From an uncultured Planctomycetales bacterium (GTDB lineage Bacteria; Omnitrophota; Gorgyraeia; Zapsychrales; JAHFFX01), in assembly GCA_964464475.1 (NCBI GenBank), contig CAYXGG010000002.1, positions 93,455-157,454 on the forward strand: a stretch of 64,000 nucleotides of DNA. Reading direction: 5' to 3'. The first letter of the stretch is position 1, and each line of letters begins with the position of its first letter. Below the pieces are notes generated by a model. It did no database searches. It was not told the DNA's origin and saw nothing but the letters and a program-made list of their open reading frames with translations. This document shows positions 11,289 to 55,766 of the stretch, piece after piece. The position numbers and the translations under genes were made by a program.

Positions 11289-11352
11289 AGGTCAATCCTA
11301 TGGTAAGAAGCGACAAAAAGCATCATTCTCATCATACTCATATAAACCAAAG

Positions 11353-23652: not shown

Positions 23653-24780
23653 CTAACGAGCCGCGTTTAGTCCAGGAAAAGAAGATTTCATCAATTTGAA
23701 ACGAGTCGACATTTTCAGACCCATTTCATAGGCCAACGGTAAAGCTCCCAGACAAAATGAGCCCAAGAAAGACAAATAAAAAACCGTCTGAAACAATTTA
23801 CCCGAGCCGAATTCCTTCTGATGTTCTCGGGCCAACTGCCGAACCGCTGGCAATTCTTTTCGGGAAATTAACGCAAACAGCCTTTTGACATCCATCGTTT
23901 TTAAAGTCTTGCGACTCACCCGCTGGGCTCGTTCGACTTCTATTCCCCACTCCGGACGAACGTTTTGATAAATACGGCGCAAAAAATCTTTACCTTCCTT
24001 AAATTCCACCGCGGAAAGATTTTCTACCGCGTAAACGCATTTCCACAACAACTTCGCCGTCTCCAAACTGCAAGGCGCGGTGGTCAACCGCAGAATATTC
24101 TGGTGCATAATTTGCGACATTTCTTCTAGATCCCTTTGCCCCCGCGCCATAACGCTCTGCGACTGTTCATGAACTCGGATGGCAACACCCCACTCCGGAC
24201 GGGTCGTAATAAGAAATCCTCGCCGCACCAACTCAGACCATAATTCAAAATCCGCAGCGATACGGAATTTCTCGTTATAACCGCCCACCTCTTGAATGAT
24301 TTTCTTCTGCATCAGGCAACCGACATGATTAATAGGGGAAGCCACCAACGATCGCAGCACGATATCGCGAATGTCCTGTGGGGGTTTGAGCGGCTTTTTG
24401 ATTTTACCCTGTCCATTAATAATCACCGCCTGGCAGCTAACCACCGCATAATGCGGATTTTCATTAATAAAACTAATCTGCTTTTCCAGCCATCCGGGAA
24501 AAGCTAAATCATCCGCATCCATGCGGGCAATCCATCGCCCCTGCGCGTTGTGCAAACCAATATTCAAAGATTTGGTTTGTCCACAATTCACCTGATTCGT
24601 AATCACTCGAATGCGATCGTCTTTGAATGAGCGAATGACTTTTAACGTTGCGTCACTGCTCGCGTCGTTAACAATCAACAATTCAAAATCAGAATACGTT
24701 TGTTTTAACAGGCTGCGCAATGTATCCGGCAGATACTTGGCTCCGTTAAAAACCGTCATGAGAACCGTTAATTTACTCAT
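23653..24780 (-). CDS. glycosyltransferase family 2
   Basis: LTVLMTVFNGAKYL...DFELLIVNDASSD...ARMDADD gives the GT2 DxD and acceptor motifs. Confidence 0.85.
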   Translation of the reverse strand: MSKLTVLMTVFNGAKYLPDTLRSLLKQTYSDFELLIVNDASSDATLKVIRSFKDDRIRVITNQVNCGQTKSLNIGLHNAQGRWIARMDADDLAFPGWLEKQISFINENPHYAVVSCQAVIINGQGKIKKPLKPPQDIRDIVLRSLVASPINHVGCLMQKKIIQEVGGYNEKFRIAADFELWSELVRRGFLITTRPEWGVAIRVHEQSQSVMARGQRDLEEMSQIMHQNILRLTTAPCSLETAKLLWKCVYAVENLSAVEFKEGKDFLRRIYQNVRPEWGIEVERAQRVSRKTLKTMDVKRLFALISRKELPAVRQLAREHQKEFGSGKLFQTVFYLSFLGSFCLGALPLAYEMGLKMSTRFKLMKSSFPGLNAAR

Positions 24781-24922
24781 TGTGACTCCTTACTGGCCTT
24801 TTCTCTTCCAACAATTGTAAAGGAAGCCAGCCCGCCTGCCGGCGAGGCAGGTATTAGACCTTTCTTCTCTTCGAGAAAAGGCGGTATTGACTACCTCAAA
24901 TTAATCATTAGTAGTAGAAAGG

Positions 24923-25606
24923 TCAATAACCAAGTTGTTCGACAAAAGGCGCAATCGTTGGGGCGCACAAACTTCCCACCCAAAAATTGAATTTACGACG
25001 CTGTCCGGGGAAGTATTTGCCGCTGTCCAACAATCGCCCGTGAGGGTATTGCGCCAAATTAACCCGATAATGATCTTTCTGTGCGTCATGCAGGAAAACG
25101 ACTCCCTCCGGCCGCAAGCATCTGAGAGCCACTTCCAAACACCGACGGCGAAAACGCGCATCAACAAATATCAAATCGTATTTCTTGCCCAGCTTACTAG
25201 GCAATTCAATATAATCCTGTTCTTCTTTTTGCGTAGGCGCAAATTCTCCGCAACGAGGAGCCGCCTCCCAACGCCAATGCGGCTTTTCAAAACAAGGTCG
25301 AAAAGGAAATACGTGTAACGACACGTGTTTGGCTAGTCCCGATTGATCAATGAGCTGGTGAACCCGATGATACCAATCGAGGTTATTATCCACGGAATCC
25401 CAACTAAACTGAATACCTTTCTTGCTTAAAAATTTGGCAAAGTACAACGTTGAATAGCCCGACCCATATTCAAAAACATTCAGCTGTCCGCGTTGTGATA
25501 ATTTCAGTAATAACGTCTTGAAAGCATTTCTCTCGACCGCCGTCATTGCGGGTAGACGCAACCAAGAATGCAGTTTCATGATCATATCTAAACCGGATAA
25601 ATTCAT
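24923..25606 (-). CDS. class I SAM-dependent methyltransferase (CmcI/TylF-type, Methyltransf_24-like)
   Basis: VFEYGSGYST glycine-rich motif and LIFVDA...FLHDAQ. Confidence 0.55.
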   Translation of the reverse strand: MNLSGLDMIMKLHSWLRLPAMTAVERNAFKTLLLKLSQRGQLNVFEYGSGYSTLYFAKFLSKKGIQFSWDSVDNNLDWYHRVHQLIDQSGLAKHVSLHVFPFRPCFEKPHWRWEAAPRCGEFAPTQKEEQDYIELPSKLGKKYDLIFVDARFRRRCLEVALRCLRPEGVVFLHDAQKDHYRVNLAQYPHGRLLDSGKYFPGQRRKFNFWVGSLCAPTIAPFVEQLGY

Positions 25607-26535
25607 GAGAGCGTTCGCAAATAACGAAGTAGATTTTGAGTCGCCTGAATTTCCATTTCTAATCTAGATTCGGCCGTTAGCGTCGCGATATGTGGCGTTA
25701 AGACCACGTTGGCACAATCGGTCAATTTTCCGGAATACGGTTCACTGGGAAAAACATCCAGCGCCGCACCGGCCAAATGACCGTTGTTCAATAATTCCAC
25801 TAAAGCATCTTCATCAATTTGGTGACCACGGGAGACATTAATCACGTAAGCACCTTTTGGGAGACGGGACAATTGCGCGCGACTCAACTTCCAAGGACGT
25901 TGCGGATCATCAGCCACATGCAACGAGATAACTTGAGAAGATTTCAATAATTGAGGCAGCGTCAGCATCGTTACGCCATTCTTTCTGGCCCAAGTGAGAT
26001 CCGCTTTCGGATCAAAACCACTGACCTTCGCTTCTAATTTGACCAACATTTCCGCCACCTTGCGCCCAATGCGCCCCAAACCGACAATGCCAATCGGCTT
26101 ACCTTTTAAAAGAGAGCCGCCTTCTTTCTTCCATTCGCGTCGCTTCATCCAAGTCGTATGCAACGACAATCGACGCAACACGTCAAAGATCATCCCGATC
26201 GTCATTTCCGCCACGGGCTGAACAACGACCTCAGGTGTATTAAAAATTTTGATACCTTTTCGGGAACACCATGACGCATCAATATTATCCACACCAACAC
26301 CACAGCGACTTAAGCATCGCAATTGGGATAATTGGCTTAATACTGTCGCGTCATAAATTTCCACGCCAGCAATGATTCCCGCACAATTGCGACCCAAATC
26401 CAGAATCTGAGTTGATGTCAGCCTCTTACCGGTTGAATTTAAGGTAAAAGAAAAACCGCTTTTCTTCAGCAGTTTTAAAGGTTCCTGCCCGTACTCCGCG
26501 AAAGTTGATAAAGCGACCAGAACCTGTGGTTTCAT
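25603..26535 (-). CDS. D-isomer-specific 2-hydroxyacid dehydrogenase
   Basis: GIVGLGRIGRKVAEM NAD-binding motif and a catalytic R/E/H-region pattern. Confidence 0.85.
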   Translation of the reverse strand: MKPQVLVALSTFAEYGQEPLKLLKKSGFSFTLNSTGKRLTSTQILDLGRNCAGIIAGVEIYDATVLSQLSQLRCLSRCGVGVDNIDASWCSRKGIKIFNTPEVVVQPVAEMTIGMIFDVLRRLSLHTTWMKRREWKKEGGSLLKGKPIGIVGLGRIGRKVAEMLVKLEAKVSGFDPKADLTWARKNGVTMLTLPQLLKSSQVISLHVADDPQRPWKLSRAQLSRLPKGAYVINVSRGHQIDEDALVELLNNGHLAGAALDVFPSEPYSGKLTDCANVVLTPHIATLTAESRLEMEIQATQNLLRYLRTLS

Positions 26536-27305
26536 GCGCGTAAAATGCTCTCGTATAATTTCTTTTGCCTACCGTCTTTTGCCAGCGCCGCTTCAATCTT
26601 GGCGACATCTCCGGGGTTATCAACGCCAATGGTCTTCTGATCATAAATCACGCCGCGGATCGAAAAACCATGCTCCAGAATTCGCAACAAATCTATCGAC
26701 TCCGAAATTTCAAGCGGTGTCGGAGTTAATTTTGAAAATTGATGAATAAATTCTTTGGAAAACGCCGCCAGGCCGGTCTGCCGATAAAAAACTGGCCGAA
26801 TTTTGGTCCGCACATAAGGAATCGGCGAGCGAGAAAAATACAGAACATCCTGTCGTGCGTTAATAACCGCCTTGACCACGTTGATATCAGGAACATCTTC
26901 CTCATCCTTGATGGTGGACAATAAATTCGTACATCTAATAGCCGAATCCGCCAGCATAGGTGCTACGAGCTGGTTAATGACTTGCGGCTCAAAAAGTGGT
27001 TCATCCCCCTGGACGATGACCACAATATCCGCCGACAAATTTTGCGCGGCTTCCTCTACCCGGTCGGTACAACGTTCATGAGTGTCCGCCGTCATCACCG
27101 CCCGACCACCAAAACTTTTGACGGTCTTCACAATGGCGTCATCGCAAGTCGCCACAATCACGTCATCCAATAGTTCGCATAACGCGACCCGTCGCCTCAC
27201 ATGTTCAATCATGGGAAGATCCAAAATCTTAACTAAAGGCTTCCCCGGAAAACGCGAAGCCGCCATGCGCGCGGGAATCACCGCTACAATTCGCTTCTTA
27301 TTCAT
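26532..27305 (-). CDS. KdsB-like 3-deoxy-ulosonate cytidylyltransferase (CMP-sugar synthetase)
   Basis: IVAVIPARMAASRFPGKPL is the KdsB/CMP-Kdo synthetase N-terminal signature; 257 aa. Confidence 0.8.
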   Translation of the reverse strand: MNKKRIVAVIPARMAASRFPGKPLVKILDLPMIEHVRRRVALCELLDDVIVATCDDAIVKTVKSFGGRAVMTADTHERCTDRVEEAAQNLSADIVVIVQGDEPLFEPQVINQLVAPMLADSAIRCTNLLSTIKDEEDVPDINVVKAVINARQDVLYFSRSPIPYVRTKIRPVFYRQTGLAAFSKEFIHQFSKLTPTPLEISESIDLLRILEHGFSIRGVIYDQKTIGVDNPGDVAKIEAALAKDGRQKKLYESILRA

Positions 27306-28264
27306 TGATCACCATCACTTATTCTTTGATTCCTTAATGTTAATTCAGAAATAACAACACCCAATCGCTGCAGAGACTGATAAGCCATCTGACGAACGCC
27401 ATAAACATCCCAAACACTTTTTCCTGCAGAAGAAATCACTTGTTCAGTATGCGTACTCGTATCCATTAATAGTTTCTTTAGATTCCGGACGCTTTCTTCC
27501 CCAGGATAACTAGCCAAAAGCTGTGCTGCTAGAATCCGATCTTCGTATTTTTCAGAACCACTTAATACTTGGGCCTTCTGTAAGTATTCCTTATCCGCAG
27601 GGACAATAAGAAAACAGGAGCTACCACTCCATAAAACCCGATAAGCCTCCGAATCTTCAGGAACTCTTAATGTCACGGCACCATTGGGCGTCCTTCCAAA
27701 GCCAAGGGCAATCTCTGGATGACTCACTTGAGGCAAAACATGATCAGCAGCATTCAGACTACTTAAACGTGCTTTGACTGCCGATAAAATCACGTCAGCC
27801 ATTTTAGGAGTAGTCATGTTTGCCAATACGGGTGGGCGGTCAAAAGTTTCTATATTAACCGGAACATACGGATAGCCGTCATACAAAACCCATTTCTGAC
27901 TAAAGTCTGTTCCGTAATAATCTTTACTGCCTCGTTTCAAGAAAAACAATCGCTCCTGTTGATCTGTTTTCCAAAGTTCAGCCGATTCAAAACCCACATT
28001 GTCCCAGAGCCAAGTTAAAGTGGGTTGATTGATATCACCTTTTAATACTTCCTGAATTTGCACCATCACTTCCTGAGTGCTCCACAGGGGCTGCTGAGGA
28101 ACCAATCCCGAGCTCGTTTTCACATCGACAACGACACCACGAATAATGACCGGGGCCTCCACCGTCATCCATTCAAGACTTTTACCAACATGGATCTCCG
28201 CACAAGCTGATGAATTTATCTCCAAAATGATCAACGCGATGATGGCGAATACTTTATTTTTCAT
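27302..28264 (-). CDS. hypothetical secreted protein
   Basis: Signal peptide MKNKVFAIIALIILEINSSACA; no recognisable domain. Confidence 0.5.
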   Translation of the reverse strand: MKNKVFAIIALIILEINSSACAEIHVGKSLEWMTVEAPVIIRGVVVDVKTSSGLVPQQPLWSTQEVMVQIQEVLKGDINQPTLTWLWDNVGFESAELWKTDQQERLFFLKRGSKDYYGTDFSQKWVLYDGYPYVPVNIETFDRPPVLANMTTPKMADVILSAVKARLSSLNAADHVLPQVSHPEIALGFGRTPNGAVTLRVPEDSEAYRVLWSGSSCFLIVPADKEYLQKAQVLSGSEKYEDRILAAQLLASYPGEESVRNLKKLLMDTSTHTEQVISSAGKSVWDVYGVRQMAYQSLQRLGVVISELTLRNQRISDGDQ

Positions 28265-28295
28265 TAAGGACTAAACTTATTCCTCTGGTCACTAT

Positions 28296-29054
28296 TTATT
28301 GTGGTAATACGCCGCAGTCTACATTAATGGATTGACCGGTGATCGCACTGGCCGCATCAGACGCTAGAAACAAACAGGTTTGCGCAACTTCCGTCGCCAA
28401 CGGCAACCGTAACAAAGCGCTTTGGGACAACGCGAAATCTTTTAAATACGAATCAACATTTCTTCCTCGAGCGGGAGACGCTTTCGCTTTTAAAGCCGAT
28501 TTTAGTCCCGCCGTTTCCACATAGACAGGACACACCGCATTGACCCGAATTCCTTTGGGTCCCAATTCCTTGGCCAGGGCCTGAGTTAATCCCACCACGC
28601 CAAATTTGGATGCGCAGTAAGCGCTATTATGCGCTGAGCCGCGCTTTCCGGCCAAACTAGCCAGATTAATCAGAGAACCGCCTTCTTTGAGGTGAGCGGC
28701 GGCCGCTTTACATCCCCATAACGTTCCCTTCAAATTAGTATCCAGCAGATCGGTCAACAGCTGATCACTGATGTCCGCGAGCGCTGCCCACTGCGAGAAA
28801 CCCGCGCAATTCACATAAACATCCAGGCGTCCGGTTTTCTTCATCGCCAGTTGAACCAATTTTAAATGATCTTTTTCATATCGAACATCCATGGCCAAAC
28901 TGACACATTGTTTTTCCGATCTGATGGGCACCCCTTTAACTTGACGGGCGCCCACGACCACAAAATAACCCGCTTGCACAAAAGCTTGCGTCACGGCCGC
29001 GCCAATCCCTTGCGTTCCACCTGTAATGACAGCGGTTTTCATATCCTTTGACAT
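28296..29054 (-). CDS. SDR-family oxidoreductase
   Basis: TAVITGGTQGIG and YCASKFGV (YxxxK). Confidence 0.85.
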   Translation of the reverse strand: MSKDMKTAVITGGTQGIGAAVTQAFVQAGYFVVVGARQVKGVPIRSEKQCVSLAMDVRYEKDHLKLVQLAMKKTGRLDVYVNCAGFSQWAALADISDQLLTDLLDTNLKGTLWGCKAAAAHLKEGGSLINLASLAGKRGSAHNSAYCASKFGVVGLTQALAKELGPKGIRVNAVCPVYVETAGLKSALKAKASPARGRNVDSYLKDFALSQSALLRLPLATEVAQTCLFLASDAASAITGQSINVDCGVLPQ

Positions 29055-29118
29055 CGGTTAGCAAATCATTTCGTTTTGAATTTCAGAATTATTTAGAATT
29101 TCTTATCTTCATTTTCTT

Positions 29119-29901
29119 TTAAATAGACATACACGTAAACCCGCCATCCACCGGAACTTCCGCCCCCGTGACGAATCCGGAAGCATCTGAACATAACCAA
29201 ATAACCGTGCTGACCAACTCCTCCGGCTTGCCAAAACGCCCCATGGGGGTATGGTTAAGAATCGCCCGTTGGCGATCCGGTGTAATAAAATTCCTCATGC
29301 TCCATTCCGTGGGAAAAAATCCTGGGCGCAACGCGTTGACTCGGACATTAAACGGGGCCCATTCTCGAGCCAAATTCTCGGTTAAGTTTTTGACGCCCGC
29401 TTTCGCGACCGAATAGGAAAAAGCCTTCGGCAAAGGCGGACCCGAGGAAACCGAAGAAAGATTAATAATACAGCCCCTTTTTCTTTTCACCATATACTCA
29501 CCAAAAACCTGACAGCCCAAAAAAGTGGCTTTGACATGACTATCCAGAATAGCCGTCCACTCTTCTTCGGTAATCTTAAAAAAAGGCGTGGGCGCGTTAA
29601 TTCCCGCACCATTAATCAGAATATCCACCCTGCCTAATTCCGCCAAGATCGCCCGCAACGCCATCTCATGATACTCTTTACGCGTCACATCGATCACAAA
29701 AGTCATGACCTTGACGCCAGTTTTTCGTCGGATGACTTTGGCAATCTGAGTCATGGTCTTTTCGTTACGGTCTAAAATCGCGATGTCCGCTCCCGATCGC
29801 GCCAAGGCCAGCGCCATTTGACTACATAAATACCCTCCGCCTCCGATCACCACCGCGACCTTATTTTTGAGCTGAAACATTTTAGATAAAAATTGATTCA
29901 C
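29119..29901 (-). CDS. SDR-family oxidoreductase
   Basis: VAVVIGGGGYL and YSVAKAGV. Confidence 0.85.
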   Translation of the reverse strand: MNQFLSKMFQLKNKVAVVIGGGGYLCSQMALALARSGADIAILDRNEKTMTQIAKVIRRKTGVKVMTFVIDVTRKEYHEMALRAILAELGRVDILINGAGINAPTPFFKITEEEWTAILDSHVKATFLGCQVFGEYMVKRKRGCIINLSSVSSGPPLPKAFSYSVAKAGVKNLTENLAREWAPFNVRVNALRPGFFPTEWSMRNFITPDRQRAILNHTPMGRFGKPEELVSTVIWLCSDASGFVTGAEVPVDGGFTCMSI

Positions 29902-31565
29902 GAGATATTCCCTTCTTTCGACGTTCTACCCTGAGTCAATACATCGGTCGCTAATTCCAAGCGCGACAAACGATGCCAATTATCCCCGTCAAAATAACCG
30001 ATAAACGGAACCCGCATCCCTCCGAGAATCAGACCGCGTTGCGTCTTTTGAGTAGTAAAAAAATATTTGTGCCACGGTACTGGGCCATCCACGAAATGTA
30101 AATCTTTCGGCTTCCAAGGATACTCCTTAAACCGAGAAACCTCACCACTAGGCATAATCTTTTCTTCCCGATTGCCGCAATAAAACAGATGATCCTCACT
30201 CAGATTGCGACGCAAGAACGCAAAATAGCGAGCAACGGACGCAGCGTTCATTTCCTGCATCGAGGCAATGTTGATCGCCAAATCAAAACGAAGCCCCTCC
30301 AGTGCGTCCAGAAATTCCGCGGGAACGAAGACAAAATCCGCCGTGCGAACATCATCCACACTTCTTTTTTGTTCCCAGAGCTGATGCTCTTTGCCGGGAA
30401 AAGCCCTCGTTAAATGCCGCGCCTGAAAAAGCAACGTCTTCCCCAAATCAACCATAAAAATGCGCGATTGGGGAAAAACTATTTTAATCATCCCGGAAAA
30501 AAAACCATAACCGTCGCCAATGTTCAAAACATTGAACCGGCTATTCCTCGCAAAATTCTTTTGAATCAACGCCAATGCGCATAGCTGACGAAAACAATCA
30601 TAAGTAAAATTTAATCCCATCCGGCGTGCGAGCTCTCGCCCCTGAGTCATGAGCCGCGTAAGGCGCCGACGATCGGATAGCTGGACTAAATAACAACCCA
30701 TCGTAGCCCACGAACAAACGCGATAAACCCAGGACGCATTTTCTAAATCGCCAAACCCTTCGCCGTGCAAACGTTCCAATCGATTCGCTGATTTGTGAAT
30801 CTTGACCCGCTGATGAAACTGCTTCCAATGAGAGGAGACCAAATGTTCGGGAGTCTGATTTTCTTCGTAGTAATCGGTAATCAACCGGTGGATGATCTCG
30901 TCATGCCGACGAGTTAAACTGGGGACATGCGATTGAAAATAATCTTTAATATCGGCTAAATCCGCAAACACCGGAGCAGAAACTCCTTTGAGTCTATGAC
31001 TCGGGTCACGACCGACAAAAACGACCCCCGCTTCGCTAGCGGACCGATAGTCTTCGAGGCTATCACCCACAAAAGCAACTTCGGCCGGATCCAGATCGCC
31101 GCGACGCATTATCTCTCTAAGAGCTTCCGTTTTCTTCCAGGGAACAGCGTAAATCCCGCTAAAGAACTTTTCCAACCCTTTTCTTTTTAGAATCCGCGTC
31201 AAATCCCCGACAGGATTAATCGTGGCCAGGTAAAGAGGGACCCTTTGAAAAAAGAATTCCAAGAATTCTTTCACGCCATGGACTAAGGGGCAATCAATAG
31301 TTTTCTGTACGACCAGCTGAGAAAATTTCTGACTTAATTCTGCCTGCAAATGCTCTGAGTACGGCTGTTTTAAAATATGTTCGGCAATAAAACGAAATTT
31401 CTCAAACCTGATGATGGCGTTGTGCGCTCGATGATAAGCCATGATGGCGGGTAACTGAGCCGGATAATCCTTATACAATTCCTCAAACGCCCGGTCTTTA
31501 ATGACCACCGATTCCACAATGACGCCGTCGAAATCGAGCACGATCGCCCGCAACGGAGCATCCAT
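29898..31565 (-). CDS. HAD-superfamily phosphatase fused to a putative sugar O-methyltransferase-like domain
   Basis: N-terminus carries HAD motif I (IVLDFDGVIV), motif III K and motif IV (FVGDSLEDY). The C-terminal ~350 aa carry NVLNIGDGYGFFSG, a class-I methyltransferase-like glycine motif. Start taken at the ATG at 31563-31565 (MDAPLRAIVLDFDG), which is a TAATG overlap; the ORF extends to 31625. Confidence 0.65.
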   Translation of the reverse strand: MDAPLRAIVLDFDGVIVESVVIKDRAFEELYKDYPAQLPAIMAYHRAHNAIIRFEKFRFIAEHILKQPYSEHLQAELSQKFSQLVVQKTIDCPLVHGVKEFLEFFFQRVPLYLATINPVGDLTRILKRKGLEKFFSGIYAVPWKKTEALREIMRRGDLDPAEVAFVGDSLEDYRSASEAGVVFVGRDPSHRLKGVSAPVFADLADIKDYFQSHVPSLTRRHDEIIHRLITDYYEENQTPEHLVSSHWKQFHQRVKIHKSANRLERLHGEGFGDLENASWVYRVCSWATMGCYLVQLSDRRRLTRLMTQGRELARRMGLNFTYDCFRQLCALALIQKNFARNSRFNVLNIGDGYGFFSGMIKIVFPQSRIFMVDLGKTLLFQARHLTRAFPGKEHQLWEQKRSVDDVRTADFVFVPAEFLDALEGLRFDLAINIASMQEMNAASVARYFAFLRRNLSEDHLFYCGNREEKIMPSGEVSRFKEYPWKPKDLHFVDGPVPWHKYFFTTQKTQRGLILGGMRVPFIGYFDGDNWHRLSRLELATDVLTQGRTSKEGNIS

Positions 31566-32362
31566 TAAGCGCGGTTGGCTTTGACCTGCAGCAAGCATTC
31601 TTGAAGTCGCTGTGTCCATTTCCAAAGAACGAAAACATCGGAAGCCAAGACAGTAAACGTATATCCCTTATCAAAAGCCTTTATAATCCCGTCGGTATCC
31701 GGCTCAATCAAATGCGTCCCGACCGATTTCTTATAACGATGACAAGCCTTCAACACGATCTCAGATGCTTCCTGCACCTTCTGATGAGTTAACTGTCCCG
31801 GGATCCCTAATGATCCGGAAATATCATACGGACCAATCATAACGCCATCAATATCCTCAGAATCCAGAATACTATCTATATTCTTCACGGCCTTAACCGA
31901 CTCAATCTGAACGATGACCACCGACGTCTCATTCCAAGTTGAAATATACTTATCAAAATCAAATCCATATCCCTGCGCGCGGGAAATACCAAAGCCTCGC
32001 TTCCCTACCGGAGGATATTTGCACCAGTCAATGATCTCTTTGACTTCGCCCGCCGACGAAACCATTGGGACGATCAAACCATCGGCCCCCGAATCCAGCA
32101 ACCGACGCGTCATTTCCGGATTATGTGACGCGACCCGAGGCAAACATAAGGAGCCATTGGCCTGGCAAGCTGCCACAATCCGCTGGGATTGTTCCTGATC
32201 AATCGTGCTGTGCTCAAGGTCGATACCGATAAAATCAAAACCTGCCCGAGTAAAGATTTCCGTGATGGAAGGATGCGCGAAGGAGTTCCAGCCCGCAAAC
32301 ACACGTTCACGGTTACGCATTTTGTTTTTAAGTAGTTGTCTTCGGGATATTAATTCTTTCAT
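31565..32362 (-). CDS. HpcH/HpaI-family aldolase (2-keto-3-deoxy-acid aldolase type)
   Basis: FIGIDLEHSTIDQEQ...LIVPMVSSAGEVKEIID gives the HpcH/HpaI TIM-barrel pattern. Confidence 0.75.
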   Translation of the reverse strand: MKELISRRQLLKNKMRNRERVFAGWNSFAHPSITEIFTRAGFDFIGIDLEHSTIDQEQSQRIVAACQANGSLCLPRVASHNPEMTRRLLDSGADGLIVPMVSSAGEVKEIIDWCKYPPVGKRGFGISRAQGYGFDFDKYISTWNETSVVIVQIESVKAVKNIDSILDSEDIDGVMIGPYDISGSLGIPGQLTHQKVQEASEIVLKACHRYKKSVGTHLIEPDTDGIIKAFDKGYTFTVLASDVFVLWKWTQRLQECLLQVKANRA

Positions 32363-33078
32363 TATTTTCTTTTGGGAGCGGGTGTCGAGGCCTGAGCTAG
32401 CGATTCTCCCTTGGCAGCGTCATCTAAAAACATTTGGACGGTCTCTTTCGAGTAAGGGTGCACGATCATACCATCCAGGAAAGAAGGAATGACCGTAACA
32501 ATATGCGAGCCGGCTTCCAGCCATTCAATAACGTTAATGACCTCACGAGTGGAGGCAAGAATAATTTGCGATTTCAGCTCATACGCGTCCAATAACTTAC
32601 GCAATTTGCGAATTTCCTCAATACAGTTATAACCCATGTTATTGACACGGCCACCCAGCATGGACACATACGACGCTCCCGCAAGAGCGGCGAGAAAACA
32701 TTGCTGCGCACTCATCATGGCGGTCACGTTGATGCGCACGTCATGCTTGGTTTCCAATTCATGAATGACTTCCAGATTGTCCAGTTCGCCTTTGGGACCG
32801 TGAATCGTAATTTTTACGGTAATATTTTTCGCCCAGCCGGCAATATCCAAAGCCTGTTTAAGCATTTCTTTCTTATCATTAGTTGTGACTTCCACAGATA
32901 GCGGATAAGGATGAATGAATTCCGCAATCTCAACGGTACGGGCCTTAATGCCCTTCATGCCCCCCGTCACCCCTTCTTTTAGGAGAATCGAAGGATTGGT
33001 CGTGACCCCGCGAATGATGCCCATACGATGATATTTTTTGATTAAATCCAAGTTGCCGGTGTCTAAAAAAATAGCCAT
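32362..33078 (-). CDS. fructose-6-phosphate aldolase / transaldolase-family protein
   Basis: MAIFLDTGNLDLIKKY...GVTTNPSIL gives the Tal/FSA signature; 238 aa is the short FSA/TalC size. Confidence 0.85.
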   Translation of the reverse strand: MAIFLDTGNLDLIKKYHRMGIIRGVTTNPSILLKEGVTGGMKGIKARTVEIAEFIHPYPLSVEVTTNDKKEMLKQALDIAGWAKNITVKITIHGPKGELDNLEVIHELETKHDVRINVTAMMSAQQCFLAALAGASYVSMLGGRVNNMGYNCIEEIRKLRKLLDAYELKSQIILASTREVINVIEWLEAGSHIVTVIPSFLDGMIVHPYSKETVQMFLDDAAKGESLAQASTPAPKRK

Positions 33079-33099
33079 TGGTTCTCCTGATTGATCACA

Positions 33100-33146
33100 A
33101 AATTCTAAGGACTAAACTCTAAAAAACACAAAATTTAGTCCTTAAG
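33100..33146 (-). terminator. hairpin spanning the stop codon of the SIS-isomerase gene, followed by a U tract and a ribosome-binding site (candidate internal terminator/attenuator)
   Basis: Inverted repeat of about 12 bp, CTAAGGACTAAA (33105-33116) and TTTAGTCCTTAAG (33133-33145), with a 16-nt loop. On the minus strand it is followed by AAUUUUGUG, then AGGAGA and the AUG at 33078. Confidence 0.35.
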
Positions 33147-33771
33147 GTTTAGAATTTATTCTCTCTCTTTTTTCCTGGGCGACATGCTCCCATTTATTCG
33201 ACATCTGCATGATACGGGGATCACAGACGATCAGATGCCAAATCACCGCGGCAAAACTTTCCGCGTGCGGCGTTACGGTCGCCGGATTCACGGTCGGAAC
33301 CACAACACAGGCATCAGCCACTTGAGCTGTAAATCCCCCATCGCGGCCGACCACTCCCATGATTTTCGCCTGCTGCGCTTTCGCATATTCCAATGCGTAA
33401 ACAAGGTTGGCGCTAATATTCTTCTCCTTACTACCCCCACCGACAGAAAAAACTATGACGCCATCTTGGGCACAGAGACCGGAAGTTTTAAGCCAGCCCG
33501 CAAAAACGGTTTCCCACCCTTCATCATTCGTACGCGCAGTCAACTCGGAAACGTTATCCACCGGGGAGTAAGCTTCAAAACCAGCTATCTTACGAAAATC
33601 ATTGACGGCGTGAGAGCAATTACCGGCGCTTCCGCCCACGCCCAAGAAAAACAAACGCCCCTTTTTCTCGCGAATTTCCAACAACAGCCTAATCATCTTT
33701 TCTACCACGGCCTGGTCAATCTGGCGGATAATCGCGACCGCCTCCTGCAAATACTGTTCCACATGATTCAT
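33142..33771 (-). CDS. SIS-domain sugar-phosphate isomerase (GmhA/phosphoheptose isomerase-like)
   Basis: LFFLGVGGSAGNCSHAVNDF ... VFSVGGGS; single SIS domain, 209 aa. Confidence 0.8.
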   Translation of the reverse strand: MNHVEQYLQEAVAIIRQIDQAVVEKMIRLLLEIREKKGRLFFLGVGGSAGNCSHAVNDFRKIAGFEAYSPVDNVSELTARTNDEGWETVFAGWLKTSGLCAQDGVIVFSVGGGSKEKNISANLVYALEYAKAQQAKIMGVVGRDGGFTAQVADACVVVPTVNPATVTPHAESFAAVIWHLIVCDPRIMQMSNKWEHVAQEKRERINSKP

Positions 33772-34796
33772 GTTGATGACCCCTTTTTACGCAGCACGAC
33801 CCGACAATACGAACTCATTAAACCTGTTTGTAAAAACTCCTGAAACGCCCGACGCACTTCGACGTCTTTGCGAGACAACAAACTTTTGACAAAACGCGGC
33901 AATTCAATCTTAGAATCATCTTTAACCGCCCGAGCCACGATTTCAACATCCAGCACACCCGGAGTGCTCAACTCAATACATTCAAAACCGTGACGGTCAA
34001 CCAAAGCGCGCAAACCTTCAACAGAGAAAACATTCATCCGATCCGGAGGATAAAGATTCTCCGCCTGGTCCCATAACACTTGAATATCAAAACCGGTCGC
34101 CACAATCGCCGTCAAGAAAACCAAGCCCTGTGGACGAAGCATTTCTTTAATTTTCTTAAATAATACGTCGGGTTGGGCACTGCGATCCGCGACTTCAAAA
34201 ACAGAAATCACATCCACCGCGTCTTTTAAATCCACTTCCCACCATGGAGCCTCCCACACATGACCCCCGTCAATATCTTTAAGTTTCGGAATTTTAACAA
34301 AAGGGTTAATTAACGTCTTGCGGGAGAAATTCTCCGCGTGAGCGAGCTCTTCGAGATAACCCCACTGATTGGTATTGATATCCGCAAAATGCTTGGCGGC
34401 CGGAAAATATTCCTGAGTCGACTCAACGATCCATTGAAAACGAGGTTTGATAATTTTCTCGTCACGTTTTTTCTTGGTCGCGTTGGATAGCTCCTCTCGC
34501 CAAAAAACGCGTGACGGCGCCGCATGATAAAACTCATTAATGGTTTTCTCATCCGGCCGGGGCGAAATAAATAACGTATGACAACTCTGGCAAGAACAAT
34601 AAGACAAACCTAATTTCTTAAAAGCCGGTTCAAATCGATTCGAAAAACAGGCAGGGCACAAACATTCTTCCAAACTCTTACTTTTCAGAAAAAACTTAGC
34701 GACGTCCTCACGGGTTAAATCTATATACTCCTTGATCAATCCGGAGGGCTTCAGATCAATCTCACGATACTCGTCAAAGACGACAATGTTCTTCAT
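33768..34796 (-). CDS. class I SAM-dependent methyltransferase with N-terminal Cys4 zinc-ribbon (sugar C-/O-methyltransferase-like)
   Basis: CPACFSNRF...CSCQSCHTLF zinc ribbon, then a Rossmann-like methyltransferase core (GLVFLTAIVATGFDIQ). Confidence 0.5.
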   Translation of the reverse strand: MKNIVVFDEYREIDLKPSGLIKEYIDLTREDVAKFFLKSKSLEECLCPACFSNRFEPAFKKLGLSYCSCQSCHTLFISPRPDEKTINEFYHAAPSRVFWREELSNATKKKRDEKIIKPRFQWIVESTQEYFPAAKHFADINTNQWGYLEELAHAENFSRKTLINPFVKIPKLKDIDGGHVWEAPWWEVDLKDAVDVISVFEVADRSAQPDVLFKKIKEMLRPQGLVFLTAIVATGFDIQVLWDQAENLYPPDRMNVFSVEGLRALVDRHGFECIELSTPGVLDVEIVARAVKDDSKIELPRFVKSLLSRKDVEVRRAFQEFLQTGLMSSYCRVVLRKKGSST

Positions 34797-35823
34797 TAAT
34801 TTTTCCTAGGGTGTGGGACTGTTGAGCGGCGTCCGCGTAAGCACGATCGATGAGTTCCATGACGCGCAGGGCATCCTCTGAGGAGCTGACGGTGACCGGC
34901 TTCTTTTCTTTAATACATTTAACAAACTCTTCCACTTCCAAATCCCAAGACAGATCTCGGTCAAAGTAAGTTACTTCCTCGGAGGGATTTCCGACTGCTT
35001 CCGTTTCATCTTCAAATTGCCGTCGGCCAACGATCAGTTTTTCCCGTCCATAGCTGCCGGTTTTGGAAAGCAACCCTTCCACAACTAAATAGCCTTCCTC
35101 TAACGTAATAAAAATTGAAAACGTATGTTTCCACATCGTCGCCGAGGAATGCAGGCACGCGCTTTGCGATTTCTTATTATGCAAAATCACGAACGCATTA
35201 TCTTCCATGGAAAATTTCCAGTAAGTATTCGCGGTAAAACACTTAACGAACTCAAAATCACCGCATAGATAGCGAAACAAATCCAGCATGTGAATTCCTT
35301 GATCCAACAAAATCCCGCCGCCGGAGATGTCCTTGTCATTGCGCCAGGATTTATTAAAATTTTTGCCGCCGGATTTCCCGTAAATCCCACGAACGTTAAT
35401 GATTTTGCCAAAACGCCCGCTTTCGATAATGACTTTAGCTTTAATAATTCCGGGATGAAAACGATGATTGAACCCGAACATAAGCCGCGTGCGAGACGTT
35501 TCGTACTTGATAATATTACGGATATCTTCAACGTGGCAACCCGGAGGTTTTTCACAAAAGACATGTTTGCCGGCCTGCATGGCCTTGATGCAGAAATCAG
35601 GAGAATATCGATTAGGGGTACAGACAAAAATGATGTCAGGAGAAGCGGCTAAAAGCTCATCAAAAGAAGCAAAGGCAGGACAACCAGAAATTTTTTGCAG
35701 CGTAGTTGACTGTGTATCGCAAATACCAACCAACGAAAGGTCCGGATTGCGCTCAATAACGCCACGGCGTATTTCGCCCATATAGCCGTACCCAATAATG
35801 CCGCATTTAAGTTGTTTATTCAT
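34774..35823 (-). CDS. Gfo/Idh/MocA-family NAD(P)-dependent oxidoreductase
   Basis: LKCGIIGYGYMGEIR N-terminal Rossmann motif plus EKP and a C-terminal GFH-domain pattern. Confidence 0.85.
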   Translation of the reverse strand: MNKQLKCGIIGYGYMGEIRRGVIERNPDLSLVGICDTQSTTLQKISGCPAFASFDELLAASPDIIFVCTPNRYSPDFCIKAMQAGKHVFCEKPPGCHVEDIRNIIKYETSRTRLMFGFNHRFHPGIIKAKVIIESGRFGKIINVRGIYGKSGGKNFNKSWRNDKDISGGGILLDQGIHMLDLFRYLCGDFEFVKCFTANTYWKFSMEDNAFVILHNKKSQSACLHSSATMWKHTFSIFITLEEGYLVVEGLLSKTGSYGREKLIVGRRQFEDETEAVGNPSEEVTYFDRDLSWDLEVEEFVKCIKEKKPVTVSSSEDALRVMELIDRAYADAAQQSHTLGKINEEHCRL

Positions 35824-35837
35824 AAGCCTCTACGATT

Positions 35838-35962
35838 ATCCCAAATTTTGCAATAGAAGCCCTTTTCTCAACCTGAGAAGCTAGCACAAAAAGTGCTTCC
35901 AAAATTTGGGATTACCCCGCCAAAGGCGGCCCTTTGGGCGGATTTTGCTAATGCAAAATCCG
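35838..35962. promoter_or_regulatory. cluster of dyad-symmetric elements in the divergent intergenic region (candidate operator/RNA structure)
   Basis: Three elements: ATCCCAAATTTTG...GAAGC (35838-35860) is inverted at GCTTCCAAAATTTGGGAT (35895-35912); paired mini-hairpins CCGCCAAAGGCGG and GCCCTTTGGGC lie at 35917-35939; a perfect 10-bp palindrome CGGATTTTGC-TAAT-GCAAAATCCG lies at 35939-35962. Confidence 0.35.
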
Positions 35963-36217
35963 GGATTAATCTTTCTTAGAAAAACGGGGGCCATTTTAAC
36001 ACAATTTTCGGGGAAGGAATAGTTTTTATTCTTTATCGATAGGGTCAAATCAAGCCGCCTTTCCTGATGCGCGTTTCTAGAGGAACTCCCCTTTGCTCGA
36101 TATTTCTCAAATATTTTGATTGACCTTGTTAGACTCAAAACGAAGCGGGAACTACTGCCAGGAATAGCTCTCCTCGCTCCACCCCCTATAGGACTAAACA
36201 AAAAAAGCAGAAGGCCA

Positions 36218-36246
36218 TTGACTTATCCTTTCCCTAAAATTACTAT
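36218..36246 (+). promoter_or_regulatory. possible promoter for the plus-strand SRPBCC gene (TTGACT-N17-TACTAT)
   Basis: TTGACT at 36218-36223 and TACTAT at 36241-36246. The ATG at 36255 has no Shine-Dalgarno sequence, so the transcript may be leaderless. Confidence 0.25.
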
Positions 36247-36254
36247 CCTCAATC

Positions 36255-36722
36255 ATGGTCTATTGCTTTCGGCAAAAACAACATCTTTCCCTTTCTGTAG
36301 AGAAGGCCTGGGATTTCTTCTCTAATCCGGCCAATTTGGCCACGATTACGCCACCCAAACTTAATTTTCAAATTACCAGCGAACTGCCCGAAGGAATTTA
36401 TGCCGGCCTCATCATCACTTACCACGTGACTCCCCTTTTTGGAATTCCCTTATCCTGGACGACAGAGATCACGCAATGCCGTAAGCCTGACTACTTTGTC
36501 GATTATCAGCTGTCCGGACCTTACAAAATCTGGCACCATCAGCATCACTTTCGTCCGCTGCCGTCCGGCGTTGAAATGGTAGACATCGTTTATTATGAAA
36601 TTGGCTATGGGTGGCTTGATCCGGTTTTAAACCGCTTGGTGATCGGCCCGCAATTAAACCACATCTTTGCTTACCGGAAGAAAATTTTAATGGAGAAATT
36701 TGGCCTAGCGACTCGGCCCTAG
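36255..36722 (+). CDS. SRPBCC-family ligand-binding domain protein (COG4276-like)
   Basis: 155 aa. KIWHHQHHFRP motif and a length typical of the START/Bet v1-like SRPBCC family. Only plus-strand gene in the window; its stop overlaps the convergent stop of 36719-38545 (CTAG). Confidence 0.65.
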   Translation: MVYCFRQKQHLSLSVEKAWDFFSNPANLATITPPKLNFQITSELPEGIYAGLIITYHVTPLFGIPLSWTTEITQCRKPDYFVDYQLSGPYKIWHHQHHFRPLPSGVEMVDIVYYEIGYGWLDPVLNRLVIGPQLNHIFAYRKKILMEKFGLATRP

Positions 36723-45195: not shown

Positions 45196-45199
45196 CGGT

Positions 45200-48430: not shown

Positions 48431-48440
48431 GCTCGATTCA

Positions 48441-49670: not shown

Positions 49671-49680
49671 AATGAACCTC

Positions 49681-51209: not shown

Positions 51210-51318
51210 AAAATAGTTCTCGTAGAAATTCCTAGATTCTCAGCAAGTATCATCATTATTTAAGTTGCTTTGAATAAAGAACCTTTCGTACTTCGGTAAC
51301 CTAGTCAACATTAACCGT

Positions 51319-55672: not shown

Positions 55673-55766
55673 AGAATAACTTTCTGCAGGACGAACGACG
55701 CTAGACGAGGGACGACTATTCTTCTGGTCCTGACACCCTTCTCTCTCATTCCTCGCAACATTCGGA

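Follow-up and report, generated by a model that had tools for sequence, protein, structure and literature searches.

How might an acidic surface sugar be made and activated with CMP by genes that include a pyruvate aldolase and a KdsB-like cytidylyltransferase, with no KdsA- or NeuB-type synthase within the cassette? This question is raised by positions 25603-35823 of the 64,000-nucleotide stretch of DNA that we analysed (henceforth referred to as the window), for which an initial annotation had proposed a CMP-activated sugar acid formed via a pyruvate aldolase. That central idea survived every test run, and the locus is probably a horizontally mobile biosynthesis-and-transfer module for a CMP-activated 2-ulosonic (keto-deoxy) sugar acid, set inside a large surface-glycan locus; judging from the sequences, a pyruvate aldolase most likely replaces the usual PEP-dependent synthase in making this sugar. 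We found no description of such a cassette in the searchable literature or in curated protein families, and other literature may hold one.

Results

Eleven ORFs were confirmed in this interval (the initial annotation counted ten consecutive genes but named eleven), all of them, like every feature described below, on the minus strand and tightly packed or overlapping, and HMM searches against Pfam and NCBIfam backed each family to which the genes had been assigned. The recurrent gene order comprises a Gfo/Idh/MocA (GFO) oxidoreductase, a zinc-ribbon protein with a methyltransferase fold, a SIS isomerase, a transaldolase, an HpcH-type aldolase, a HAD phosphatase, two SDRs, a KdsB-like cytidylyltransferase and a phosphoglycerate dehydrogenase (PGDH)-like dehydrogenase, and is identical in loci L001-L004. 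A neighbourhood search across genomes showed strong co-conservation: approximately 80 fetched species-level loci from more than 10 phyla hold part of this ten-gene set, all ten core genes being present in 31 loci and at least eight being colinear in 41; the median spacing of neighbouring genes in related cassettes is 14-100 nt. The clustering of these families is far beyond chance and recurs in order across dozens of unrelated genomes. The genes do lie within the limits first assigned to them, but the conserved unit extends further, from roughly 23653 to 40613. The transaldolase is absent from two loci (L035 and L038) and other members from a few, which means that some steps are dispensable. 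The hosts, many of which are assigned by MAG labels, include Omnitrophota, Chloroflexi, Elusimicrobia, Deltaproteobacteria, cultured Kiloniella and Halopseudomonas, and a Methanomicrobiaceae archaeon, whose contig (L028) carries the cassette together with topoisomerase VI subunit A (Top6A); the cassette also occurs in MAGs labelled Chloroflexi and CPR. Kdo of LPS is therefore not the explanation on the archaeal contig or in these MAGs. A separate, complete canonical Leg-type (NeuB-type) cassette with its own cytidylyltransferase lies at 46182-57736 of the window.

The proposed condensing enzyme is an HpcH/HpaI class II (metal-dependent) pyruvate aldolase (core gene 5; 31565..32362; HpcH_HpaI, 4.5e-30). 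Its PDB relatives are YfaU, GarL and HpaI, it falls far short of the cut-offs set for the HpaI, GarL and RhmA equivalogs, and the catalytic His, Arg, Gln, Glu and Asp (H51, R76, Q152, E154 and D180) do not vary across 22 orthologues. Homologues number more than 2600, with identities of 59-69% for each of the best 120. Other known class II pyruvate aldolases of this family are catabolic enzymes, whose natural acceptors are often small aldehydo-acids, not sugar phosphates. The adjoining short transaldolase/FSA-family enzyme (core gene 4; 32362..33078; TAL_FSA, 1.3e-35) scores ~107 bits against short transaldolases (3r8r, 3s0c) versus ~47-64 bits against FSA; it keeps the motif residues Asp (FLDT), Glu (SVEV) and Lys (VKI), and SPFxGRxDD has become SMLGGRVNN throughout the cassette family. 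Although the initial annotation placed this enzyme at the condensing step, it more likely supplies the sugar phosphate. The SIS isomerase (core gene 3; 33142..33771) is a single-domain, GmhA-like protein that just passes SIS_2 (27.5 bits, cut-off 27), scores far under the cut-off of the gmhA model TIGR00441 (51.5 bits against 209), conserves the SVGGGS loop and has only phosphoheptose isomerases as PDB relatives.

The phosphatase (core gene 6) is encoded as a fusion at 29898..31565, probably starting with the ATG at 31565 rather than the TTG at 31625. Residues 26-204 match Hydrolase and HAD_2, with the motifs DFDG and GD...D conserved, and belong to HAD-IA; the score against the KdsC-type model TIGR01670 is 19 bits (cut-off 107). 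Like the transaldolase and the isomerase, this phosphatase retains its motifs for catalysis and phosphate binding. Residues 336-479 match TIGR04371, a NanM-type sugar O-methyltransferase model (94.8 bits, cut-off 44). Both domains of the fusion first described are thus confirmed, but they differ in standing: the HAD part occurs in ~64 loci and the NanM-type part, which elsewhere is a separate gene or missing, in only ~15-20, making it an optional accessory.

The cytidylyltransferase (core gene 9; 26532..27305; CTP_transf_3) is a KdsB/KpsU-like CMP-sugar-acid synthetase that passes NF009905 (293 bits, cut-off 255) and TIGR00466 (168.8 bits, cut-off 155.2), finds its best PDB match in the E. coli capsule enzyme KpsU (3.7e-48; 38% identity) and shares only 22% identity with the NulO-type cytidylyltransferase that the window also carries. 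The CTP/Mg residues are retained; R10, R15, K19, Q98, D100, R157 and D235 are all conserved, although D235 is Asn in 16 of 57 cassette orthologues. Y185 and Q98 are reported to bind the 5-OH of Kdo, with H181 placed in the active site as modelled (PMC12199768). Essentially all 57 orthologues replace H181 (by Q, I or V) and Y185 (by S, L or A); E210 is changed to D, Q211 to F or L in most (Q being kept in 17) and S74 to R in 40. When placed by neighbour-joining, a check that the initial annotation had named, the cassette enzymes form their own clade apart from four KdsB/KpsU references, all gammaproteobacterial. Together with the altered sugar pocket and the co-conservation of the cassette, this is the opposite of the clustering with housekeeping KdsB that would have spoken against the original proposal.

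Four oxidoreductases and the zinc-ribbon protein accompany these enzymes, and their roles are guesses. The GFO oxidoreductase (core gene 1; 34774..35823; GFO_IDH_MocA plus C-terminal domains) is found in ~60 related loci at 44-71% identity, its nearest solved relatives being sugar or inositol ring dehydrogenases such as DgpA and myo-inositol 2-dehydrogenase. The D-2-hydroxyacid dehydrogenase (core gene 10; 25603..26535; 2-Hacid_dh and 2-Hacid_dh_C) is PGDH-like by its best NCBIfam model (TIGR01327) and its best PDB matches (short PGDHs), and conserves the catalytic motifs RG, EP and PH; there is a 4-nt overlap between its start and the stop of the cytidylyltransferase gene, and the two genes adjoin in 55 loci (median gap 14 nt). 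Both SDRs are frequent but dispensable, being jointly absent from L005, L030, L034 and L035. SDR a (28296..29054; adh_short and adh_short_C2) is 50-67% identical in ~55 loci and always adjoins SDR b (29119..29901), a sugar-acid ketoreductase-like protein whose best NCBIfam model is the D-mannonate oxidoreductase-like NF006132 (251 bits, cut-off 281), followed by gluconate 5-dehydrogenase, also among its PDB relatives, and KduD. The zinc-ribbon protein (core gene 2; 33768..34796) has four Cys near its N-terminus and a Methyltransf_23 match over the C-terminal half only. It folds like the sugar C-methyltransferase TcaB9, although sequence similarity to TcaB9-type enzymes is undetectable and, at 342 aa, it is shorter than the matched chain (405 residues). 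The gene and methyltransferase fold first reported are present, but the canonical SAM glycine loop is missing: motif I reads DINTNQ instead of GxGxG, and strand beta2 ends in Asn instead of an acidic residue, which makes SAM binding uncertain.

Two transferases missed by the initial annotation are co-conserved with the cassette. One is a Pfam-less GT-B glycosyltransferase (36719..38545; 608 aa), linked to the cassette in 48 loci, with an invariant His-Pro in its C-terminal half, directly following a predicted strand (residues 471-475); such HP motifs bind the CMP-sugar donor in sialyltransferases and are also found in beta-Kdo transferases (PMC2169525, PMC10148158), making this protein a candidate CMP-sugar transferase. 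The other, downstream of the cassette, is a GT2 glycosyltransferase (23653..24780; Glycos_transf_2, 2.8e-34) with tblastn matches in 41 loci at up to 54% identity. A second Pfam-less protein (38538..40613; 691 aa) is co-conserved in a subset (full-length tblastn matches in 17 loci, 34-40% identity) and showed no relationship to the GT-B family by hhalign. An accessory Methyltransf_24 methyltransferase (24923..25606; PF13578) follows the 2-hydroxyacid dehydrogenase in ~13 loci (39-49% identity). The secreted hypothetical counted initially among the pathway genes (27302..28264) is instead a local, lineage-specific insertion outside the conserved cassette: it has a signal-peptide-like N-terminus, no Pfam or NCBIfam match and no tblastn match in any of 84 related loci, and belongs to a modest uncharacterised family (282 cluster representatives). 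Just upstream of the GFO start codon, the leader contains a stable hairpin (35834..35916) with a 13-bp perfect inverted repeat found nowhere else in the window (-40.1 kcal/mol, z = -2.8; weak Rfam hairpin matches on both strands).

Discussion

Protein families and gene linkage suggest the following pathway. The short transaldolase would make or supply a ketose phosphate, which the GmhA-like isomerase would convert to an aldose phosphate, most parsimoniously sedoheptulose 7-P to heptose 7-P, alternatively Ru5P to A5P, F6P to Man6P, or octulose 8-P as in LmbR/LmbN. The HpcH-type aldolase would then join pyruvate to the aldehyde, giving a 3-deoxy-2-ulosonate omega-phosphate in a step that would replace PEP-dependent KdsA/NeuB, and phosphate cleavage by the HAD-IA enzyme would draw the reversible aldol reaction forward. 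The GFO, TcaB9-fold and PGDH-like proteins may tailor the sugar acid by way of a keto intermediate that is perhaps C-branched or epimerised and then reduced again, with the SDR pair optionally epimerising or reducing a side-chain carbon. The KdsB/KpsU-like enzyme would form the CMP-sugar and the HP-motif GT-B protein would add the activated sugar to the growing glycan, with a set of accessory O-methyl- and acyl-transferases that differs between loci. Precedents are the formation of an octose phosphate by the LmbR transaldolase, LmbN isomerase and LmbK phosphatase (PMC5854111, PMC4351081) and EpaA/EpaB, in which a nonulosonic acid is epimerised by a cytidylyltransferase together with its paired reductases (PMC12053666).

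We considered whether the cassette could instead be a non-orthologous route to ordinary CMP-Kdo or a simple derivative, with the SIS protein as arabinose-5-P isomerase, the HpcH and HAD-IA enzymes standing in for KdsA and KdsC, and Kdo being activated by the KdsB-like enzyme and decorated by the oxidoreductases and methyltransferases. The KdsB-type models passed, the identity to KpsU, the parallel with KdsD/A/C/B logic and the need of LPS-free hosts such as the archaeon for a self-contained route are consistent with this; we nevertheless think it unlikely, since the Kdo 5-OH ligand Y185 and H181 are replaced (PMC12199768), E210, Q211 and S74 are also changed, supply of Ru5P or A5P needs no dedicated transaldolase, the SIS protein is GmhA-like only and not KdsD/KpsF-like, and three or four core oxidoreductases are left without explanation.

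It is more doubtful that the aldolase serves something other than the backbone, adding a pyruvate-derived C3 branch to a keto-sugar (shewanellose-type) or using hydroxypyruvate, provided by the PGDH-like dehydrogenase and the phosphatase, to give a 3-hydroxy (Ko-like) ulosonic acid. Both of those proteins are core gene products that could convert 3-phosphoglycerate to hydroxypyruvate, a donor that HpcH-family aldolases take in vitro, and the GFO enzyme could make a keto-sugar acceptor. However, the two genes pair differently, HAD with the aldolase and the dehydrogenase, by translational coupling, with the cytidylyltransferase. In addition, a branched hexose would lack the anomeric C2-OH at which KdsB-type enzymes activate ulosonic acids, and the conserved core has no NDP-hexose nucleotidyltransferase. 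A catabolic or salvage cluster for sugar acids that lies beside polysaccharide genes by chance, its aldolase cleaving 2-keto-3-deoxy acids like HpaI, GarL and RhmA, is very improbable: even though the nearest characterised aldolases are catabolic and SDR b resembles mannonate/gluconate dehydrogenases and KduD, the equivalog scores are far too low, the cassette is always embedded in glycan loci with glycosyltransferases on either side, a cytidylyltransferase is always linked and the GT-B transferase very often, and the transporters, kinases, dehydratases and regulators that typify sugar-acid catabolism are missing from the conserved unit. Its neighbours are glycosyltransferases and Wzy-like proteins, and the aromatic-degradation genes that the initial annotation thought would point to catabolism are not among them.

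The proposed ulosonic acid module resembles several known systems in part. Like the lincomycin octose route (LmbR, LmbN, LmbK, LmbO), it has by gene roles a dedicated transaldolase and isomerase for an unusual higher aldose phosphate, then a phosphatase, a nucleotidyltransferase (LmbO) and oxidoreductases (PMC5854111, PMC4351081); that route, however, has no pyruvate aldolase and yields a GDP-sugar for an antibiotic, not a CMP-sugar acid for a surface glycan. With the Kdo pathway (KdsD, KdsA, KdsC, KdsB/KpsU) it shares the series of isomerase, C3 condensation to a 3-deoxy-2-ulosonate phosphate, HAD phosphatase and KdsB-family CMP-transferase, but differs in using a class II pyruvate aldolase instead of PEP-dependent KdsA, a single GmhA-like SIS domain instead of two SIS and two CBS domains, and a HAD-IA instead of a KdsC-type HAD-IIIA phosphatase, and in having replaced His181 and the Kdo contact Tyr185; a transaldolase, three to five oxidoreductases and a TcaB9-fold protein are additional. 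Nonulosonic acid pathways (NeuB/LegI/PseI with NeuA/LegF/PseF, including Kdn-9-P synthase routes) likewise provide CMP-activated ulosonic acids for surface glycans from mobile cassettes in glycan loci, with variable O-methyl and acyl tailoring and, as in EpaA/EpaB, cytidylyltransferase-linked redox epimerisation (PMC12053666), whereas the present core has no NeuB-family synthase, aminotransferase or N-acetyltransferase and its cytidylyltransferase is of KdsB type. By its GT-B fold and HP motif, the 608-aa protein is comparable to the CMP-sugar-dependent GT-B transferases, a class that takes in bacterial sialyltransferases (GT38/52/80), beta-Kdo transferases (GT99/107) and WaaA (GT30). Finally, HpaI, GarL and RhmA/YfaU make or cleave 4-hydroxy-2-keto (2-keto-3-deoxy) acids using pyruvate, and the cassette aldolase has their fold family and conserved catalytic residues; whereas their characterised members are catabolic, its subfamily is fixed in a biosynthetic glycan cassette.

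Gene content and setting of the cassette

The window consists of a long run of minus-strand genes, and a surface-glycan locus extends from ~9 kb to beyond 63 kb of it, with genes for a phosphoglycosyl transferase, WecG/TagA, GT2 and GT4 transferases, three Wzy_C-like proteins and RmlA/RmlB-like and DegT enzymes. The Wzy_C-like membrane proteins, which belong to the O-antigen polymerase/ligase family, are encoded at 9894-12672 and 20381-21925 (-), two of them adjacently, and the presence of three together suggests that the locus serves more than a single polymer or ligation step. Searches with Pfam and NCBIfam models bore out the families named in the initial annotation for the eleven ORFs at 25603-35823 (-). 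In the order of transcription these are a Gfo/Idh/MocA oxidoreductase (GFO); a Cys-rich protein with a partial Methyltransf_23 match (33768-34796); a single-domain GmhA-like SIS protein (209 aa, one SIS_2 domain); a short transaldolase/FSA protein (PF00923, 123.6 bits, cut-off 27); an HpcH/HpaI aldolase (PF03328, 105 bits, cut-off 25); a HAD-IA phosphatase with a fused NanM-type sugar O-methyltransferase (TIGR04371, 94.8 bits, cut-off 44); two SDRs, referred to as SDR b (29119-29901) and SDR a (28296-29054); a 320-aa ORF with a signal-peptide-like N-terminus and no family match (27302-28264); a KdsB-type cytidylyltransferase (26532-27305); and a 2-hydroxyacid dehydrogenase resembling phosphoglycerate dehydrogenase (PGDH). 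NCBIfam holds no model specific to any of the cassette proteins besides the generic KdsB-type ones. A 219-aa ORF on the opposite strand of the SIS gene (33184-33843, +) is almost certainly a spurious shadow ORF.

Conservation and distribution of the cassette

The aldolase has more than 2600 homologues in the database, of which the best 120 are all 59-69% identical to it and come from very different lineages; the closest homologues of the cassette occur in Omnitrophota MAGs. Three long contigs share the same gene order: GFO, methyltransferase-fold protein, SIS protein, transaldolase, aldolase, HAD phosphatase, a variable insert, two SDRs, cytidylyltransferase and 2-hydroxyacid dehydrogenase. 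When one genome per species was searched with a profile for this aldolase subfamily, 80 loci were recovered. Among the related loci fetched from other genomes (L001-L084), three at 32% identity (L082-L084) lacked the cassette and were left out. When the window proteins were compared with all fetched loci by tblastn, the ten core proteins were 40-80% identical and their order was kept: all ten core genes were present in 31 loci and at least eight were colinear on one strand in 41, with median intergenic gaps of 14-100 nt, many loci being cut by contig ends. The SDR pair was absent from only a few loci (L005, L030, L034 and L035). Two cassette subtypes could be distinguished, in which the cytidylyltransferase is 50-68% (type A) or ~37-41% (type B) identical to that of the window.

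By label, the MAGs that carry the cassette belong to Omnitrophota, Planctomycetes, Elusimicrobia, Chloroflexi, Thermodesulfobacteriota, SAR324, Bdellovibrionota, Acidobacteriota and Uhrbacteria; further hosts are the cultured Kiloniella laminariae and MAGs assigned to Halopseudomonas aestusnigri, Pseudodesulfovibrio and Magnetovibrio. The scan also returned a Methanomicrobiaceae archaeon. The archaeal locus (L028) has a gene for topoisomerase VI subunit A at its start, which backs its archaeal origin. The same aldolase profile found no relatives in the viral contigs scanned, and thus no sign of phage carriage.

The interval between the HAD and SDR genes is the main variable slot of the cassette. 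In the window it holds the NanM-like methyltransferase, and in L003 an acyltransferase together with an FkbH protein, a radical SAM enzyme and a carrier protein. Radical SAM enzymes (B12-binding or other) were seen beside or inside the cassette in related loci (L003 11436-16827, L002 1252-2646 and L028 17529-19049), and in L003 they are accompanied by genes of the FkbH-like, carrier-protein and MaoC/SDR kinds. Such genes suggest that in some cassette variants the sugar acid is decorated with acyl groups, either glycerate-derived or methylated.

Borders of the unit and a linked GT-B protein

The comparison altered the extent of the unit at both ends and in its interior. The 320-aa ORF at 27302-28264, counted in the initial annotation as a secreted member of the pathway, has a counterpart in none of the 84 related loci. 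It sits between SDR a and the cytidylyltransferase, its stop overlapping the cytidylyltransferase start, and belongs to a small family with 282 distant relatives among cluster representatives. This ORF is a local insertion. Conversely, co-conserved flanking genes had been left outside the unit. Directly upstream of GFO lies a Pfam-less GT-B protein (36719-38545, -; 608 aa from its ATG, with the same start in the public annotation), which is kept at this position in 48 loci. Downstream, the GT2 gene (23653-24780) has conserved counterparts in 41 loci; a second Pfam-less protein (38538-40613, 691 aa) has them in 17. Profile comparison with hhalign showed no kinship between the GT-B family and the neighbouring 691-aa protein.

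The GT-B protein has both the GT-B fold and the donor-binding HP motif. In the sequence alignment, a clear D/E-D/E-G motif is not among the invariant columns of the family. In bacterial sialyltransferases the CMP-sugar donor is bound by an HP motif (PMC2169525), which beta-Kdo transferases have as well (PMC10148158). Because the motif is known from CMP-sugar transferases, we infer that the GT-B protein may be the transferase dedicated to the CMP-sugar of the cassette.

Immediately before the GFO start codon is a stable hairpin (35834-35916) formed by a 13-bp perfect inverted repeat (ATCCCAAATTTTG), with a fold energy of -40.1 kcal/mol (z = -2.8); the repeat is unique in the window. The GT-B gene and the cassette, which abut in other loci, are here separated by an unusual gap of ~900 bp, and the hairpin, which falls within this gap, could be a regulatory leader or a remnant. 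Further upstream, between the two CMP-sugar cassettes of the window, are two Pfam-less ORFs (543 aa, 40610-42241, and 536 aa, 42243-43853, -) and a 486-aa protein with a split nitroreductase domain (43825-45285, -), none of which has a counterpart in the 84 related loci.

The cytidylyltransferase departs from KdsB at active-site positions

The cytidylyltransferase passed the KdsB-type models NF009905 (293 bits, cut-off 255), NF003952 (262, cut-off 193) and TIGR00466 (168.8, cut-off 155.2), and among solved structures it is nearest to the capsule enzyme KpsU (3.7e-48), with the LPS KdsB enzymes behind. We aligned 57 cassette orthologues with E. coli KdsB (MG1655 record), KpsU and H. influenzae KdsB. 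The CTP/Mg residues R10, R15, K19, Q98, D100, R157 and D235 are retained, D235 being N in 16 of the 57. H181 gives way to Q, I or V and Y185 to S, L or A in the 57 orthologues; in addition, E210 is D, Q211 is F or L in most and Q in 17, and S74 is R in 40. For E. coli KdsB, hydrogen bonds to the Kdo 5-OH are described for Q98 and Y185, and a place within the modelled active site for H181 (PMC12199768). In a neighbour-joining tree, for which the references were four enzymes from Gammaproteobacteria only, the cassette enzymes formed one clade outside the KdsB proteins of E. coli, H. influenzae and Y. pestis and E. coli KpsU, to which they are 27-39% identical. The cassette enzyme is also far in the tree from the second, nonulosonic acid (NulO)-type cytidylyltransferase of the window, to which it is 22% identical. 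By HMM the enzyme belongs to the KdsB family, but the replacement of H181 and Y185 together with the separate clade indicates, as far as sequence comparison goes, that it is not a housekeeping KdsB and does not bind Kdo in the typical way. Its scores exceed the cut-offs of the NCBIfam models named 3-deoxy-manno-octulosonate cytidylyltransferase, and automatic pipelines would therefore probably name it KdsB, archaea and Chloroflexi- or CPR-labelled lineages included. This label is a probable case of systematic over-annotation and could mislead, in that LPS or Kdo might be falsely inferred in Chloroflexi, CPR bacteria and archaea.

The other cassette enzymes

In the aldolase H51, R76, Q152, E154 and D180 are invariant, and we take the conserved positions to correspond to His45 and Arg70 (catalytic) and Glu149 and Asp175 (metal ligands) of HpaI. 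Its solved relatives are YfaU, GarL and HpaI, and it scored far below the equivalog cut-offs of all three models compared (HpaI 145.6 against 368.8, GarL 137.6 against 406.8 and RhmA 124.1 against 441). The transaldolase is nearer to short transaldolases than to FSA and also falls below equivalog cut-offs; 61 orthologues conserve the motifs FLDT, SVEV and VKI, presumably the Asp, Glu and Schiff-base Lys sites known from TacTAL and the B. subtilis transaldolase, and the family carries SMLGGRVNN throughout where SPFxGRxDD is expected. The only relative of the SIS protein in NCBIfam and the PDB is GmhA, matched weakly (TIGR00441, 51.5 bits, cut-off 209), and by sequence it forms a subfamily related to, and distinct from, GmhA. 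Its Ser/Gly-rich loop SVGGGS is retained at what we assume to be the sugar-phosphate-binding site of GmhA. The HAD enzyme is of type IA with intact DxD and GDxxxD motifs, its best matches being HAD-IA and phosphoglycolate-phosphatase-like families.

Among the oxidoreductases, the 2-hydroxyacid dehydrogenase, whose start overlaps the cytidylyltransferase stop, is nearest to phosphoglycerate dehydrogenases; GFO resembles sugar and inositol ring dehydrogenases; and SDR b resembles mannonate and gluconate-5 dehydrogenases and KduD, which act on keto or hydroxy carbons near the distal end of sugar acids. By fold comparison, the Cys-rich protein combines a Zn-ribbon with a TcaB9-like class I methyltransferase fold; by sequence it had no meaningful match in the PDB. 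It lacks the SAM motif I GxGxG, having D-I-N-T-N-Q instead, and its strand beta2 ends in ...LINP without the acidic residue.

A separate NulO cassette lies in the same locus

A canonical cassette for a NulO of the legionaminic acid (Leg) type is located 10 kb upstream (46182-57736, -). It encodes a DegT aminotransferase, a PtmE-like CBS-NTP transferase, a Pfam-less 409-aa protein, a GATase and HisF-like pair (acetamidino formation), a PglD-like acetyltransferase, a hydrolysing 2-epimerase, NeuB (53134-54186), an SDR, the second CTP_transf_3 protein (54971-55672) and two or three GFO-family proteins. The locus in the window thus encodes two different routes to CMP-sugar acids. Flanking the NulO cassette are genes for a formyltransferase-like protein (58815-59612), a polysaccharide deacetylase (59612-60661) and a 4,6-dehydratase-type SDR (60612-61604), all on the minus strand. 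In Ca. Kuenenia stuttgartiensis a deacetylase and a formyltransferase lie inside the Leg-type cluster (preprint 10.64898/2026.04.20.719630), and by analogy the gene pair in the window hints at a NulO that would bear a free amine or an N-formyl group.

A pathway model and its possible product

Taken together, these enzymes would allow the following route. The transaldolase and the GmhA-like isomerase would deliver an aldose phosphate, to which the aldolase would add pyruvate to give a 3-deoxy-2-ulosonate phosphate. The HAD enzyme would remove the phosphate, and the sugar acid would be tailored via a keto intermediate by GFO, the TcaB9-fold protein, the PGDH-like enzyme and, where present, the SDR pair. 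The product would then be activated by the cytidylyltransferase and transferred by the GT-B protein. Although we infer every step, we lean towards this general model. The core of the pathway proposed in the initial annotation is kept in it; what had to be given up or redrawn are the membership of the hypothetical protein, the addition of two methyltransferases, the use of the transaldolase together with the aldolase as the condensing step, and the extent of the unit.

As regards chain length, a GmhA-like isomerase combined with the canonical transaldolase product leads to sedoheptulose 7-phosphate and hence to a C10 acid as the most parsimonious guess; the acid may instead be C8 (from arabinose 5-phosphate), C9 (from mannose 6-phosphate), C7 (from erythrose 4-phosphate) or C11. 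A fuller version, in which sedoheptulose 7-phosphate or octulose 8-phosphate would be converted via a manno-heptose (or octose) phosphate plus pyruvate to a 3-deoxy-2-ulosonic acid of ten or more carbons, which would then be dephosphorylated, tailored, CMP-activated and transferred by the new HP-motif GT-B family, is doubtful as a whole and offered tentatively. Microbial higher-carbon ulosonic acids have been indicated by mass spectrometry in two reports, neither of which assigns a pathway (PMC8157484; bioRxiv 10.64898/2026.04.20.719630). The best-described of them is a diamino sugar, which a nitrogen-free cassette alone would not explain, and, as the cassette lacks an aminotransferase, we did not connect it directly with the Magnetospirillum diamino C10 acids. 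A catabolic role for the cassette was rejected in view of its gene context.

Immune and phage recognition are shaped by CMP-activated ulosonic acids, a key group of surface sugars that includes Kdo and sialic, legionaminic and pseudaminic acids. To our knowledge, all known glycan-building routes to these acids depend on PEP and a KdsA- or NeuB-type synthase. The cassette seems to make molecules of this class with a pyruvate-dependent class II aldolase, for which its own transaldolase and isomerase would provide the substrate. It is highly conserved, with protein identities of 50-80%, and is spread over many bacterial phyla and at least one archaeon, mostly in uncultured lineages. If the model is confirmed, it would bring a new sugar, which might be one of the higher-carbon ulosonic acids still unexplained, together with a new biosynthetic logic, a new family of CMP-sugar glycosyltransferases and a TcaB9-fold enzyme. 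Should the version with ten or more carbons be true, no earlier biosynthetic route to an ulosonic acid of such length would precede it, and it would be the first glycan-building ulosonic acid pathway on pyruvate aldol chemistry rather than PEP.

Comparison with known pathways

In the outline of its working the cassette resembles the Kdo and NeuB-type pathways. A KdsA-type PEP-dependent Kdo-8-phosphate synthase (DAHP_synth_1) is absent from the cassette and from all other Pfam-scanned ORFs of the window, and the only C-C-forming enzymes in the cassette are the HpcH_HpaI and TAL_FSA proteins. Whereas KdsD/KpsF of the Kdo pathway has two SIS and two CBS domains, the cassette isomerase has a single SIS_2 domain; likewise, KdsC is a HAD-IIIA (YrbI) phosphatase, and the cassette HAD scored only 19.4 bits against TIGR01670 (cut-off 107). 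Lacking KdsA, KdsD and KdsC, the cassette stands outside the canonical Kdo pathway. In contrast to NulO pathways, it contains neither a NeuB-family synthase nor a NeuA/LegF/PseF-type cytidylyltransferase, and NeuB and the second CTP_transf_3 protein of the window are confined to the separate cassette (53134-55672).

A full-text search, largely confined to literature outside subscription journals, found no paper on this gene set. Three known systems provide precedents for parts of its logic: the KdsD/A/C/B series of the Kdo pathway; the transaldolase LmbR, the octulose-8-phosphate isomerase LmbN and the phosphatase LmbK of lincomycin biosynthesis (PMC5854111, PMC4351081); and EpaA/EpaB, in which a cytidylyltransferase-reductase fusion and an SDR epimerise pseudaminic acid (PMC12053666). 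Overall, the comparison places the cassette with pathways of the CMP-ulosonic acid type, from which it would differ in its condensing chemistry and in being linked to a new transferase family.
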